Shown in pieces: positions 8,881 through 16,145 of a stretch of 64,000 nt of DNA (its first letter is position 1; every line of letters begins with the position of its first letter). The stretch covers positions 290,438 to 354,437 of the forward strand of contig CAVSLC010000005.1 of assembly GCA_963728565.1 (NCBI GenBank), read 5' to 3'. The DNA is from an uncultured delta proteobacterium. Lineage in GTDB: Bacteria > Desulfobacterota > Binatia > UBA9968. The notes beneath the pieces are model-generated. The model was not told the DNA's origin, ran no database searches, and worked only from the letters and a program-made list of their open reading frames with translations. A program made the translations under genes and the position numbers.

Positions 8881-9720
8881 ATGCCCGGCACTCTGTACAT
8901 CGTCGCAACGCCGATAGGTAATCTCGAAGACATCACGCTACGGGCAATCCGAATTCTGAAGGGCGCCGATCTCATTGCCGCCGAAGACACCCGGCACACG
9001 CAAACTCTGCTGCGGCACTTCACCATCAACACGCGTTTAACCAGTTATCACGAGCACAATGAACGAGCCAAGACGGCCCAATTGGTCGCTCGCCTCGAGC
9101 GCGGCGAAAGCATCGCTCTGGTCTCGGACGCCGGCACACCGGCCATCGCCGATCCCGGCTACCGCTTAGTTGTCGAAGCCACTCGCATGGGCATTCCCGT
9201 TGTACCGATTCCGGGTCCGTCGGCATTAGTCGCGGCTCTCAGCGCCAGCGGTCTGCCCACCGACGGATTCAATTTCAGGGGATTTCTTCCGGCACGAAAG
9301 CGGGAGAGGAGGTCCAAGCTGCAAGAGCTTCGTGTCGACCGCTATAGCCTGGTCGTCTACGAGACACCGCACCGACTCAAGGAGTCGCTCGATGACATTC
9401 GTGAAATTCTTGGTGACCGCCGAATGGTGCTGGCGCGCGAAGTCACCAAAATTCATGAGGAGTTCCTCCGCGGCCGCATCAGCGAAGTGATCGGAGAAGT
9501 CGGTGGACGCGAGATTCGAGGAGAAGTAACGCTTATTATCGAAGGCTGCTCCGATCTGCATCATCCATCCCAAGAGACACTGCGCGAGGAGATTGCGAAA
9601 CTGCTAGCCGACGGGCTGCGGGTGAAAGAGGTCGCCGAAATGCTCGGGGAGAAATACGGATATTCTAAACGCCAGATCTACGGTTTAGCTATGGATCAAG
9701 ACAAAAATCTCAAGTCTTGA
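8881..9720 (+). CDS. rsmI: 16S rRNA (cytidine1402-2'-O)-methyltransferase
   Basis: GTLYIVATPIGNLEDIT, AAEDTRHT, LVSDAGTPAIADPG, YETPHRL, REVTKIHEE. Confidence 0.95.
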   Translation: MPGTLYIVATPIGNLEDITLRAIRILKGADLIAAEDTRHTQTLLRHFTINTRLTSYHEHNERAKTAQLVARLERGESIALVSDAGTPAIADPGYRLVVEATRMGIPVVPIPGPSALVAALSASGLPTDGFNFRGFLPARKRERRSKLQELRVDRYSLVVYETPHRLKESLDDIREILGDRRMVLAREVTKIHEEFLRGRISEVIGEVGGREIRGEVTLIIEGCSDLHHPSQETLREEIAKLLADGLRVKEVAEMLGEKYGYSKRQIYGLAMDQDKNLKS

Positions 9721-11098
9721 CCCTGTACTCTTCCAATTTTCGATAAAGGGTCGTCCGATCTACGCCCAGTATCCGGGCCGCTTCGGCTTTATTCCCATAC
9801 GTGCTCTCGATGACCCGCAAAATATATTCTCTTTCCAGATCTCTGAGAGTGTACCCGTTTGCCACAGCGGCCGCGAGCGGCACAGAACTTCCGTCACTAA
9901 CCTGCGACTGCAATGGTAAATCTTTCAAGCCGATGCTGGTCTCTTTGCCAAGCAGCACCGCTCGCTCCATGGTGTGCTCCAACTCCCGCACGTTTCCCGG
10001 CCAGCGGTAATTCATCAGCGCAGCCAGCGCCTCCTGATCGATCGAGTCTATTTTTCGGTTCGCCTGAGGCGCAAATTTGTGCAGGAAGTGCTCCGCGAGA
10101 AGCGGAATATCTTCCGACCGCTCGCGTAGCGGCGGCAATTCGATGCGAATAACATTCAGCCGGTAATAGAGGTCCTGCCGGAACCGGCCTTGTTCGACCA
10201 AATGTTCAAGATCGAGGTTACACGCTGAAACAATGCGTGTGTCGACTTTTTCGGACTGATTAGCTCCCAACGGCCTCACTTCCTTGTCTTCGATGACGCG
10301 TAACAGCTTGGCCTGCAGATTGATGGGAATCTCGCTGATTTCATCGAGAAAAAGGATGCCGCCGCTGGCTTCCTGGAAGAGTCCGCGCCGGTCTTTGCGC
10401 GCATCGGTGAAGGTGCCGCGCAGATAGCCAAAGAGCTCGCTCTCAAGCAGGGTCTCCGGGACGGCAGCGCAGTTGAGCGGTATAAACGGCCCTTGGGCGC
10501 GCCAGCTATGATGGTGAATCGCGCGCGCCACCATTTCCTTGCCGGTGCCGCTTTCACCGAGGATGAGGACATTGGCGGCAAGCTCGCTGGTTTGCCGGAC
10601 GATTGAGAAAACTTCCCGCATCTTCTCGCTCTTGCCGATGATGTTCTCAAAACTGTTGCGCTCCAGTATCTCACTGCGGAGCCGCTGCACTTCTTCACAG
10701 AGCCGGCGCTGCTGCAGCCCGCGGCTCACATGTAAAATCATTTCGTCGGTGCGAAACGGTTTACTCACATAGTGAAAGGCGCCCGCTTTCATTGCCTCGA
10801 CTGCGCTTTCAATGCTGCCAAAGGCCGTGATCAAAAGGATTACCGCTTCGGGATCGATCCCTTTAACCTCTTTAACCAGTTCCGTGCCGCGCATTCGTGG
10901 CATCATCAAATCGGTGATCATCAAGTCGCAGCCCTTTGTGCGAAACTTCTCCAGCGCGGATCGCCCGTCATGCACGGCTTCAACGAAATAGCCTTCTTCG
11001 GCCAGCACATCGACGAGCAGCTGGCACATCTGCCGATCATCATCGACAATCAGGATCCGGCCGCGCGTAGCGGCGGGTAGTTTAGAGTCGGCTGCCAT
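9710..11098 (-). CDS. Sigma-54-dependent response regulator (NtrC/AtoC/ZraR family)
   Basis: REC domain (ILIVDDD, TDLMMP), AAA+ Walker A GESGTGKE, ESELFG and GTFTDA loop, WPGNVREL, Fis-type HTH (AARILGVDRTTLYRK). Confidence 0.93.
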   Translation of the reverse strand: MAADSKLPAATRGRILIVDDDRQMCQLLVDVLAEEGYFVEAVHDGRSALEKFRTKGCDLMITDLMMPRMRGTELVKEVKGIDPEAVILLITAFGSIESAVEAMKAGAFHYVSKPFRTDEMILHVSRGLQQRRLCEEVQRLRSEILERNSFENIIGKSEKMREVFSIVRQTSELAANVLILGESGTGKEMVARAIHHHSWRAQGPFIPLNCAAVPETLLESELFGYLRGTFTDARKDRRGLFQEASGGILFLDEISEIPINLQAKLLRVIEDKEVRPLGANQSEKVDTRIVSACNLDLEHLVEQGRFRQDLYYRLNVIRIELPPLRERSEDIPLLAEHFLHKFAPQANRKIDSIDQEALAALMNYRWPGNVRELEHTMERAVLLGKETSIGLKDLPLQSQVSDGSSVPLAAAVANGYTLRDLEREYILRVIESTYGNKAEAARILGVDRTTLYRKLEEYRVKT

Positions 11099-12614
11099 TT
11101 TCCAGATTGCCCTGAGCCGGCGCTCCTTTCTGTTGTCGTTGAGGCAGATGGATCAGGAAGCGAGTATACTTTCCAGGTTCGCTTTCTACGGTAATCTCGC
11201 CGCCGTGCTCTTTAATGATGCCGTAGGTTACCGCCAACCCGAGTCCGGCTCCTTCGCCGACATCCTTGGTAGTAAAAAAAGGATCGAATACATGATCAAT
11301 GATTTCGGGCGCGATACCGATCCCGTTATCTTCAAAGACAATTCGAACGCCACCTTGGCCGTCAATAGAGGGCGCGGATGAGGCGCGAATTTTGATCGCT
11401 CCCTCGGGGCCAAGCGCGTGGAGAGAATTGGCGAACAAATTGATGAACACTTGTTGGAGCAGATCCGGATCGGCTTGAATGAGCAACGGCTTCGGCGAGA
11501 CATGGATCTCAACCTTGAGGCTCTTGTCGAATAGTTGGTGTTCCAGAAGATAACGCACATGGTTGATCAACTCCGATAAGTCGACCGATCGAAACATGGG
11601 TTCCCGACGGCGGGAAAACTCCAGTAGTTGGCGTACGATGGCGGTGATGCGATCGCTTTGCGAGCGGATCACCTCGAGATTACCGCTAAGTTCTTCGCTG
11701 CTGCGCGGCCGGCGCAACAGGTATTCAGCTCTGCCTCGAACGATGCTCAATGGAGTGCCGATCTCATGGGCAAGACCCGCGGCCAAGTGACCTACCGATG
11801 CCAAACGTTCAGAGTGGCGCAGATCTCTTTCTAGCTTTAGCTTTTGTTGCTGCTCTTCCAAGAATTTGGAATAACTCCGATTGAGTTCTTCCGACATGGT
11901 GTTGAACTCTCCAGCCAGCGCGGCAATTTCGTCCCGACCTTTGATCTCGATGCGCTGCCCCCAACGGCCGCGGCCGATCTCCCGAACGCGCTGCACCAGC
12001 TGATCGATGGGCCGGGTGATATTGCGGCGTACGATGATCAGAATGAGCACAGACAAAAGAATGACCAGTGCCGCGCTGGTTCCGATGATTCGCTGACGTC
12101 GCGCTTCGATGTTGCTAATCAACTGAGAGCCTTGACGCGCTAAGACAAAGGCGCCGGCAATCCGGCCATCGCGCGCGCTAAACGGCTCGATACGGTAGTA
12201 GACCAAAATGCCACTTTCGCGAACATAACCCTCCACCCCGTTGGGTTCCCCGAGAGCTGGTCGCGGATCCAGTTCGAGAATGGCAGCAGGGTGCAGTTCG
12301 GCAAAATCGTCAGGATACCTAAGCGAGGATGAGACCGCTACGCGCTCGGCATTAGCGTTATAGACAATCAGGCCGTGAATATTTCCTCGTGGCCCGACCG
12401 TATCGGCGAATTCCTGAGTTGCATTAAGATTGTGACCATCGGCATACAGATCCCGGAGAACAGCGTGAATGGCTCGGGAGAAACCGCGCATGCCGACCCG
12501 CATTTCCCTCATGGCGTTTTCTCGATCCTGCTGAATACTCAGGTAGCCGTGAACAGTCATCGTCACCAGGATGATGACGACCAATGAGACGATCAATTTT
12601 GTTCCAAGTTTCAT
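11082..12614 (-). CDS. Membrane sensor histidine kinase (2 TM, periplasmic domain, HAMP, HisKA, HATPase)
   Basis: TM1 LIVSLVVIILV, TM2 ALVILLSVLILIIV, HAMP (GRDEIAALAGEFNTM), LAHEIGTPL H-box, FDPFFTTK and GAGLGL boxes; overlaps the regulator by 17 nt. Confidence 0.92.
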   Translation of the reverse strand: MKLGTKLIVSLVVIILVTMTVHGYLSIQQDRENAMREMRVGMRGFSRAIHAVLRDLYADGHNLNATQEFADTVGPRGNIHGLIVYNANAERVAVSSSLRYPDDFAELHPAAILELDPRPALGEPNGVEGYVRESGILVYYRIEPFSARDGRIAGAFVLARQGSQLISNIEARRQRIIGTSAALVILLSVLILIIVRRNITRPIDQLVQRVREIGRGRWGQRIEIKGRDEIAALAGEFNTMSEELNRSYSKFLEEQQQKLKLERDLRHSERLASVGHLAAGLAHEIGTPLSIVRGRAEYLLRRPRSSEELSGNLEVIRSQSDRITAIVRQLLEFSRRREPMFRSVDLSELINHVRYLLEHQLFDKSLKVEIHVSPKPLLIQADPDLLQQVFINLFANSLHALGPEGAIKIRASSAPSIDGQGGVRIVFEDNGIGIAPEIIDHVFDPFFTTKDVGEGAGLGLAVTYGIIKEHGGEITVESEPGKYTRFLIHLPQRQQKGAPAQGNLENGSRL

Positions 12615-12727
12615 GCACGTAGTTTCGCAGTCTCGAAGGAGCAAGGCCTATACCGCGTTCATCGCTAATCGCAGCAGCGTTAAAATCAAAGTCTCGCCAT
12701 AATTCGCATAAAAATATCGACGAACTG

Positions 12728-12761
12728 TGTGGCAACTTACGACAGCGTGTGGTTTTTCACA
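12728..12761. promoter_or_regulatory. Putative upstream activator sites for a sigma-54 activator
   Basis: TGT-N11-ACA (TGTGGCAACTTACGACA, 12728-12744) followed by TGTG-GTTTTT-CACA (12748-12761), about 160-190 bp upstream of the -24/-12 element. Confidence 0.45.
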
Positions 12762-12783
12762 ATCATTGAAATTTATCTCGTTT

Positions 12784-12796
12784 ATTCAAGCAATTG
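12784..12796 (+). promoter_or_regulatory. Putative IHF site
   Basis: ATTCAAGCAATTG has one mismatch to WATCAANNNNTTR, is preceded by an AT-rich tract, and lies between the activator sites and the sigma-54 promoter. Confidence 0.45.
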
Positions 12797-12920
12797 AGAC
12801 TATTGCACGGGCGCACAGGCTCTTAGCGCGTTGCATATTACAACGGAAAGAATCGCCGAGCCCGGCGCAAAGCCACTGAAACATTCGCGTTTATTGCAAA
12901 GAACATCAGCCGGGGCCTGC

Positions 12921-12936
12921 GGGCACGTCGCTTGCG
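12921..12936 (+). promoter_or_regulatory. Sigma-54 (-24/-12) promoter
   Basis: GGGCACGTCGCTTGCG matches TGGCACG-N4-TTGC with exact GG-N10-GC spacing. Confidence 0.75.
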
Positions 12937-13012
12937 TCTACTCCCGGATACCAATCGGCTATTCGGGATTGCGCAAACTTTCAGATTCGAAATTTAGAAA
13001 GGAGGAGATAAC

Positions 13013-13135
13013 ATGAAAAAATTGCTTTTGGCATTGTTGTTGGGAGTGACCGTCGTGAGTTCGATCGTCGATCTCGCCGCGCCCGTGAGCGCCCAAGATG
13101 AAGAACCCAAACCCAGGAAGCCCGAAACGGACTAA
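13013..13135 (+). CDS. Small secreted peptide, 40 aa (27-aa signal peptide plus 13-aa predicted mature peptide)
   Basis: AGGAGG RBS; MKKLLLALLLGVTVVSSIVDLAAPVSA|QDEEPKPRKPETD; classic n/h/c regions with a V-S-A cleavage site; flanked by a sigma-54 promoter and a terminator. Shorter than any ORF in the supplied track. Confidence 0.8.
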   Translation: MKKLLLALLLGVTVVSSIVDLAAPVSAQDEEPKPRKPETD

Positions 13136-13159
13136 TCCGTAGAAGTTGATCTCAGCTTG

Positions 13160-13190
13160 CAACAAGGGGGCTCTGTGCCCCCTTGTTGTT
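13160..13190. terminator. Intrinsic terminator, probably bidirectional
   Basis: CAACAAGGGGGC-TCTGT-GCCCCCTTGTTG 12-bp stem followed by T residues, between the convergent peptide gene and acylphosphatase. Confidence 0.75.
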
Positions 13191-13220
13191 TACGACAGGC
13201 CTCGTGAGATCTGCTGTCGG

Positions 13221-13508
13221 TTATCGTATTCGAAATTCATTAAACTCTCCTCGAAACTCGCGCCGCTGCAAATCCACTTCGTCGACTCGAGCTCCTGGCG
13301 GTCCCCGGCGGCACCAGTCGATAAGTTCTTCGATGCTATCCGATCGCCCTTCGGCCACCAGCTCCACTGAGCCATCGTGGCGATTCATGACCCAGCCGGT
13401 CAGGCCCAAGTGCCGTGCCTGTTGCGCCGTTGAAGCTCGGAAATAGACGCCCTGCACTCGACCTTTCACAATCAACCGAATACGCGCATGGGACGGAATG
13501 GTTGGCAT
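13221..13508 (-). CDS. acyP: Acylphosphatase
   Basis: VKGRVQGVYFR, GWVMNRHDGSVE, GPPGARV. Confidence 0.92.
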   Translation of the reverse strand: MPTIPSHARIRLIVKGRVQGVYFRASTAQQARHLGLTGWVMNRHDGSVELVAEGRSDSIEELIDWCRRGPPGARVDEVDLQRREFRGEFNEFRIR

Positions 13509-13580
13509 TGCTGCGGGTTTTTTAACCCAGCCACCGCTCTGGCGCAAGCCGGTTGACTCAGCGTGCGGCCGCAAAATTAT

Positions 13581-14044: not shown

Positions 14045-16145
<2,101 letters not shown>

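Follow-up and report, generated by a model that had tools for sequence, protein, structure and literature searches.

The window analysed here, 64,000 nucleotides in length, belongs to the metagenome-assembled genome (MAG; 28 contigs, 80.6% complete) of an uncultured soil Binatia bacterium. It contains a small open reading frame (sORF) that is divergent from an operon encoding a sensor histidine kinase and an NtrC-type sigma-54 activator, and that is placed between the kinase ATG (12614) and an acylphosphatase gene (Table 1). An earlier reading of the same DNA, made without database searches and referred to here as the sequence-only reading, had described the ORF, its AGGAGG, a -24/-12 element, a terminator, two palindromes, and the kinase and activator genes, and all of these were located as described. 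Judged by comparison with related genomes, 13013-13135 is a real, conserved gene of 40 codons.

A conserved small gene divergent from a kinase-activator operon

In a first search, full-length orthologues of the kinase (57-96% identity) were found in 17 of 41 genomes, all from one family. All 15 loci with readable upstream DNA have a divergent sORF of 40-49 codons that has the same build and is preceded by a -24/-12 element and a Shine-Dalgarno sequence. The sequence-only reading had proposed looking beside orthologous kinases for a conserved divergent signal-peptide sORF with such an element, and related genomes do possess one. A profile built from 14 peptides was searched in 90 genomes of this Candidatus Binatia family and recovered a single strong copy (E <= 1e-15) in 25 of them, in addition to two weaker true copies and two weak, apparently unrelated matches. 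The peptide model had no match in other genomes among 399 sampled from the rest of the phylum. Wherever a new peptide locus had enough flank (10/10), the kinase gene was found about 400 bp away on the opposite strand. The reading frame is kept and a Shine-Dalgarno match is present in 25/25 peptide loci, and 23 of these have a strong hairpin no more than 110 nt past the stop. The terminator region of the window (51 nt) folds at -27.1 kcal/mol (z = -4.9), and none of 200 shuffles folds as well.

The ratio of nonsynonymous to synonymous change (pN/pS) is 0.08-0.32 in seven of nine sORF pairs of equal length. Called proteins in a library of 1.84 billion proteins form 48 clusters of the peptide family (50% identity), which contradicts the expectation that standard gene callers would miss the sORF. 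It had also been considered that the stop at 13133 might arise from an indel that truncates a longer protein; the short frame and the acidic C-terminus are conserved among relatives, which argues against this.

The putative promoter and activator sites of the sORF

Within the window, the -24/-12 pattern occurs no more often than expected by chance (62 matches with <=2 mismatches vs 67.5), and the case for the promoter therefore rests on comparison with other genomes. A sigma-54 element with at least nine of ten positions matched lies upstream of the sORF in 25/25 peptide loci and is present in 15/15 further kinase loci as well, which amounts to 40 of 40 scanned loci. No sigma-70-like promoter was found in 12400-13400.

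The intergenic alignment has three conserved 17-bp palindromes of the type TGTTGCA-N3-TGCAACA. The two palindromes that were first noted from the window, TGT-N11-ACA (12728-12744) and TGTG-N6-CACA (12748-12761), turned out to be conserved sites 1 and 2. These are 20-21 bp apart wherever the scan called both (20 bp in the window), sites 1 and 3 are 99-104 bp apart wherever both were called (101 bp in the window), and site 3 lies about 90 bp before the sORF promoter. We built a position weight matrix (PWM) from 53 sites and scanned the genome of origin with it: site 3 had the top score (21.1), followed by site 1 (19.1, tied with one other site), and the sORF locus was the only place that combined several strong PWM sites with a sigma-54 element. 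A loose palindrome, GTNG-N7-CNAC, was found at 1164 sites genome-wide vs about 1106 expected and was dropped for the weight matrix. The sequence-only reading had also placed an integration host factor (IHF)-like site at 12784-12796; it did not withstand comparison, as only 2 of 25 loci have one at the same place.

In 13 of the 15 orthologous loci, the kinase ATG is preceded at 15-27 nt by a second GG-N10-GC element, which is on the opposite strand to the sORF promoter and matches 7-10 of 10 positions. If it is active, the kinase operon would be autoregulated through sigma-54, with only a very short leader.

The genome has 22 matches to the Sigma54_activat domain. Other -24/-12 matches in it (9-10 of 10 positions) precede small exported ORFs, namely a 74-aa lipoprotein with a relative in locus L058 of genome G085 (C10:25528, plus strand), a 33-aa signal-peptide sORF with an 8-residue tail (C22:47160, minus strand), a Gly/Ser-rich lipoprotein (C13:289086, plus strand), and a Flp-type pilin (C18:107126, minus strand). 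These coordinates mark where each match starts and are strand-local, with those on the minus strand counted from the far contig end. Sigma-54 in this organism may often act on genes for tiny exported products.

A short, terminated sigma-54 transcript divergent from an activator operon also brings to mind known small RNAs (sRNAs), since glmY adjoins glrK and qrr1 adjoins luxO. GlmY in particular is listed as a GlrR- and sigma-54-dependent sRNA (PMC4987338). Yet a regulatory sRNA on which the ORF is incidental or secondary is highly improbable for this locus, because the frame is conserved, a Shine-Dalgarno match is present, pN/pS is below 1 in seven of nine pairs, and lengths change by whole codons. 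In addition, a gathering-threshold Rfam search of the whole window gave no matches, and an E-value search of 12600-13300 gave only one, at chance level.

Export signals and the predicted mature peptide

We compared the anatomy of the product in 71 of 73 distinct family sequences; the other two have no recognisable cleavage site. Signal peptides of 27-30 aa are predicted in 69/71. Position -1 is Ala in 71/71, position -3 is S, V, G, A, or T in 70/71, position -2 is Tyr or Phe in 52/71, and position +1 is Gln in 66/71. The sORF of the window has the features of a precursor for Sec and signal peptidase I: an MKK n-region, a Leu/Ala/Val-rich core, and VSA before the Gln at the predicted cleavage site. 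The near-invariant Gln at +1 fits the suggestion, made from the window alone, that the mature N-terminus may become pyroglutamate.

The same N-terminal region could be read as a membrane anchor. The product would then be an MgrB-like modulator, whose uncleaved N-terminus packs on the transmembrane (TM) helices of the kinase while the tail reaches the sensor. The hydrophobic segment and polar c-region are long (27-30 aa) and conserved beyond the level of many signal peptides, with an almost invariant Gly11 and, in many members, a GLN motif. We nonetheless consider such an anchor very unlikely, since canonical signal peptidase I features are found in 71/71 sequences and a sister sORF at the same place carries a lipobox (see below). 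The established lipoprotein pathway removes the lipoprotein signal peptide, and so the tail, not the helix, is the product of that sister sORF.

The predicted mature part has a median length of 17 residues (range 13-55, with two read-through outliers excluded), and its length differs by gained or lost X-Pro units. Its composition is 30% Pro, 22% Glu, and 12% Lys, with Glu and Asp together making up 29%; the net charge is -2 to -4 in 59/71, and the C-terminal residue is Glu or Asp in 59/71. The window copy falls into the shortest class, with a predicted mature peptide of 13 residues that is acidic, rich in Pro, Glu, and Lys, disordered, and devoid of His and Cys. Searches of the peptide against Pfam, NCBIfam, and the ESM Atlas gave nothing that reached the cut-off (top Atlas score 0.76). 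Residues 31-53 of P0148, one of the longer members of the family, resemble the TonB model NF008084 below threshold (E = 4.6e-4, 20 bits vs a cut-off of 315), and we rejected TonB membership as the resemblance is compositional only: the Pro-rich (Glu-Pro/Lys-Pro) spacer of TonB is alike in composition, but the peptide has neither the C-terminal domain nor the membrane anchor of TonB.

Kinase linkage and a sister sORF for a mini-lipoprotein

Orthologues of the kinase, searched by its sensor region, are present in 44 of the 90 family genomes, which is more than have the peptide. Twenty-six of these 44 genomes have the peptide only, 12 have a small lipoprotein only, three have both, and three are unreadable at contig ends. 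An exported sORF was thus found in 41/44 kinase-positive genomes, and it adjoins the kinase gene in 40; in G001, the peptide gene is on a separate contig whose end falls within the intergenic region. The 27 true peptide genes recovered with the profile are all located beside the kinase gene or at a contig edge. Four unpublished genomes enter these counts: the 26 peptide-only genomes and the 25 peptide loci both include G018 and G072 (with G018 also in the first 15 loci), G051 is one of the three unreadable kinase loci, and G012 is a genome without an orthologue. The counts without them are 24 peptide-only genomes, 41 kinase-positive genomes, and 23/23 and 14/14 loci.

The sister sORF, found in 12 loci, has 39-54 codons and encodes a lipobox and an acidic mature part of about 20-33 residues that is rich in Gly, Ser, and Gln. 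The lipobox is LAGC, LTGC, LGGC, or LSAC in 11 lipoprotein-only loci and in two loci with tandem sORFs (G075 and G082), and in G065, the one remaining lipoprotein-only locus, the contig breaks off just short of the Cys. Tandem sORFs lie behind one sigma-54 promoter in G062 (L187), G082 (L172), and G075 (L057); the first sORF of G062 has no lipobox Cys, and the start of the lipoprotein sORF in G082 is ambiguous. Remnants were also found, of a lipoprotein sORF with an in-frame stop in G023 (L055) and of a frameshifted peptide sORF in G054 (L158). In a tree of the N-terminal 200 kinase residues (39 rows; G018, G072, G051, G001, and G105 left out), the lipoprotein-only state requires at least three changes even on well-supported branches. 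The simplest history would be an ancestral two-sORF operon followed by differential loss, and such a history suggests that the two tiny exported products may substitute for each other. Two distant kinase relatives, L065 and L067 (from an Acidobacteria MAG and a Binataceae MAG), have no match to the peptide model and no such sORF upstream.

This distribution bears on the autoinducer proposal of the sequence-only reading, in which the cleaved, diffusible peptide, possibly capped by pyroglutamate, would build up outside the cell or in the periplasm and be sensed by the periplasmic PDC domain of its own kinase, giving a peptide quorum or autoinduction loop. The near-invariant cleavage-site features and Gln at +1 are consistent with such a signal, 30% Pro would withstand proteases, the peptide gene is strictly tied to one kinase, and the possible sigma-54 element before the kinase operon would allow positive autoregulation. 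However, one and the same promoter drives only the mini-lipoprotein in 12 genomes and both forms in three, and the lipoprotein form cannot diffuse because it is membrane-tethered. The mature length also varies between 13 and 55 residues through repeat expansion, no exporter, outer-membrane channel, or processing gene is linked at the locus, and the sensor domain shows no covariation with peptide type. A diffusible autoinducer is therefore unlikely.

The sensor domain of the kinase

The kinase consists of a first TM helix (TM1), a periplasmic PDC/PAS-like domain of about 150 aa, a second TM helix (TM2), and HAMP, HisKA, and HATPase_c domains. Pfam assigned no domain to residues 25-176. An AlphaFold2 model of residues 1-200 from 19 sequences (predicted local distance difference test, pLDDT, 85.3; predicted template modelling score, pTM, 0.71) has two TM helices that flank a PDC/PAS-like fold, for which the closest folds in the PDB are the WalK extracellular domain and other PAS/PDC sensor domains. 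Relatives in metagenomes form 287 clusters. Nineteen sensor columns seemed to be specific for peptide type; on inspection, they track kinase phylogeny. We also predicted the complex of the G048 sensor (residues 24-178, two copies, with an alignment) with its 55-residue predicted mature peptide, and the result (score 0.00, mark 0.32, without controls) speaks neither for nor against binding.

The capped peptide might be the ligand of this PDC sensor in a loop that a sigma-54 promoter before the kinase operon would make positively autoregulated, with the mini-lipoprotein as a cell-bound form of the ligand. We regard this as improbable. If true, it would be a closed peptide-sensing circuit in a diderm, with the signal as its sole product. 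Omp85 family proteins are encoded in the genome, which marks the organism as a diderm.

Layout of the locus

The features of the locus are collected in Table 1. The end of the kinase gene and the beginning of the regulator gene share 17 nt (11082-11098), which suggests translational coupling. Elsewhere in the window, an NAD-dependent DNA ligase gene (within 14045-16109, minus strand) has a frame change at about 14230-14330, near its 3' end: the 651-aa ORF ends out of frame, and a BRCT-like C-terminus is read in a different one, through either an error of assembly or a genuine frameshift.

Table 1. Genes and predicted features at the sORF locus (positions in the window; a dot marks features without strand)
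Feature	Position	Strand	Basis
NtrC-type response regulator / sigma-54 enhancer-binding protein, 462 aa	9710-11098	-	Pfam Response_reg 4.9e-29, Sigma54_activat 7.8e-69, AAA_lid_14 2.5e-28, HTH_8 4.4e-15
Sensor histidine kinase, 510 aa from ATG at 12614	11082-12614	-	Pfam HAMP 2.1e-15, HisKA 3.3e-14, HATPase_c 1.7e-26
Candidate -24/-12 element of the kinase-regulator operon, CGGTATAGGCCTTGCTC on the minus strand	12639-12655	-	GG-N10-GC before the kinase ATG in orthologous loci; function inferred
Putative upstream activator site 1, TGTGGCAACTTACGACA	12728-12744	.	Intergenic alignment and 25-locus site scan
Putative upstream activator site 2, TGTGGTTTTTCACAATC	12748-12764	.	Conserved column block tGT.G.tTTt.CAAc
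Putative upstream activator site 3, CGTTGCATATTACAACG	12829-12845	.	Top PWM score of own genome, 21.1
Predicted sigma-54 -24/-12 promoter, GGGCACGTCGCTTGC	12921-12935	+	One mismatch to TGGCAC-N5-TTGC
Shine-Dalgarno sequence AGGAGG	13000-13005	+	7 nt before the sORF ATG
sORF, 40 codons and stop, MKKLLLALLLGVTVVSSIVDLAAPVSAQDEEPKPRKPETD	13013-13135	+	Conserved frame, family profile
Predicted signal peptide, 27 aa, ends VSA	13013-13093	+	Cleavage-site features
Predicted mature peptide, 13 residues, QDEEPKPRKPETD	13094-13132	+	Cut predicted after VSA
Intrinsic terminator: hairpin with a G+C-rich stem of 12 bp and a loop of 5 nt, weak T tract downstream	13160-13188	+	Folding
Acylphosphatase gene, convergent with the sORF	13221-13574	-	Right-hand neighbour

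Discussion

We favour, with about even confidence, a self-contained module in which the kinase-activator pair has the exported peptide as its dedicated, possibly only, output, and in which this peptide is a local accessory factor of the cell envelope. The gene, its signals, an enhancer-like array, the strict linkage to the kinase, and the export features are established by sequence comparison. In the module, the membrane kinase with its periplasmic PDC/PAS-like sensor would phosphorylate the NtrC-type enhancer-binding protein, which would bind the three conserved 17-bp palindromes and turn on the sigma-54 promoter about 90 bp past the third. A monocistronic mRNA of about 240 nt would encode the 40-aa precursor, Sec would export it, signal peptidase I would cut after VSA, and QDEEPKPRKPETD (13 residues) would be freed into the periplasm, where the N-terminal Gln may cyclise. 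We infer phosphorylation-dependent activation, Sec export, and cleavage after VSA from what is known of NtrC-type activators and of signal peptidases I and II. By analogy with ZraP, CpxP, MgrB, and DbfQ, the peptide would act locally in the envelope, in the manner of ZraP or CpxP, as a non-diffusible effector that may also report to its own kinase. That the peptide is the direct output of the adjacent two-component system, as the sequence-only reading held, is probable in light of the conserved linkage and promoter. If the sORF is the sole target, then the peptide must be an effector and not a mere feedback element.

Several results weigh against this module. Between the window sORF and its two closest relatives, pN/pS is 0.9 and 1.5, although these values come from no more than 8 and 12 changes. 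Six metatranscriptome runs contained 5-11% of sampled words, and four of the six were compared with the window. Contigs of four libraries (90-99% alike) overlap the sORF, but the same contigs, which are unstranded, show no transcript start, and may include carried-over DNA, also extend over the beginning of the kinase gene, the acylphosphatase gene, and intergenic DNA that precedes the promoter. They are uninformative on sORF expression because their coverage includes DNA upstream of the promoter. The regulon scan is partly circular, as its matrix comes from the same loci, and the genome is incomplete; a search of this MAG (80.6% complete) for rpoN (Sigma54_DBD) gave no match, and the gene is present in 7/7 other genomes of the genus. 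On the side of the sensor, no residue tracks peptide type independently of phylogeny, and recognition of a specific tail is weakened because the type switches without independent changes in the sensor. The sensor domain has a net charge of -5 to +3, and there is no charge complementarity with the acidic peptide because the domain is mostly mildly acidic itself.

The module could also work without any feedback. The kinase would then sense envelope or cation stress, and the acidic, disordered peptide or lipopeptide would be protective, for example as a "sponge" that takes up cationic compounds or hard metal ions in the periplasm. The sORF is the sole detectable member of the regulon and would therefore have a function beyond regulation, most family members carry the net negative charge and high share of Glu and Asp described above, the Pro/Glu/Lys-rich and the Gly/Ser-rich lipid-anchored forms appear interchangeable, and the sensor domain is acidic too. 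A 13-residue peptide with five carboxylates and three basic residues would, however, be a weak chelator. It has no His, Cys, or Met, no stress-related gene is linked to the locus, and the proposal is wholly inferential; we consider a pure envelope effector a credible but rather doubtful alternative to the favoured module with possible feedback.

The layout of the locus had been likened to that of zraP-zraSR, and the comparison stands: judged by gene order and predicted signals, a kinase and NtrC-type activator operon is divergent from a sigma-54-dependent exported gene in both. In Escherichia coli and Salmonella, as predicted here, the product leaves the cytoplasm by Sec and is part of the regulon of its own system. 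ZraP is a zinc-binding chaperone that resembles CpxP and Spy and, according to work attributed to Appia-Ayme in 2012, reportedly acts as a repressor of ZraSR. Whereas ZraP is a folded periplasmic protein, the product described here is a disordered peptide of 13-28 residues without a Pfam or NCBIfam match and without His or Cys, and in sister lineages of this module a mini-lipoprotein replaces it. ZraR drives the divergent sigma-54 promoters of both zraSR and zraP (PMC4987338), whereas at this locus the kinase-operon promoter is only a candidate.

Very small exported or membrane proteins encoded in or beside their own signalling system, as at this locus, also occur in MgrB-PhoQ, SafA, and DbfQ-DbfS. 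MgrB, a membrane protein of 47 aa, belongs to the PhoQ/PhoP regulon and inhibits PhoQ (PMC8404706), and DbfQ of Vibrio cholerae is a cleaved periplasmic protein that binds the DbfS sensor domain (PMC12714742). In contrast to the predicted product of the sORF, MgrB stays membrane-anchored and DbfQ is a folded 135-aa PepSY protein, and neither is described as sigma-54 dependent in the available parts of these two sources. The peptide has no match to the MgrB family or to PepSY in Pfam or NCBIfam.

PilS-PilR-pilA of Pseudomonas aeruginosa is likewise a sigma-54 two-component system with a small exported target product; pilA is sigma-54 dependent, and PilA is said to feed back on its kinase (a finding ascribed to Kilmury and Burrows in 2016). 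PilA differs in being a structural pilin with a type IV prepilin leader and intramembrane feedback, whereas the products described here have a signal for signal peptidase I or II and no pilin features. The short Sec precursor with a short mature part is shared with Phr and PapR of Firmicutes, which are Sec-exported pro-peptides that are re-imported and bind cytoplasmic RNPP receptors. At this locus, by contrast, a diderm membrane kinase is the partner, there are no linked genes of the Opp type or for processing, and a lipid-anchored variant exists.

Enzymes, transporters, or folded accessory proteins are the usual targets of two-component systems. At this locus, a complete pair of kinase and sigma-54 activator has apparently been kept for one tiny disordered exported peptide and, in sister lineages, for an equally small lipopeptide. 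The locus is also an example of how synteny with regulators can by itself validate tiny exported genes. If this is confirmed, no dedicated output smaller than the peptide would be on record for such a system within the literature searched, and the theme of ZraP, CpxP, MgrB, and DbfQ would be extended to unstructured micro-peptides. The uncultured soil lineage would then have provided a compact cassette of sensor, promoter, and peptide that could be rebuilt.

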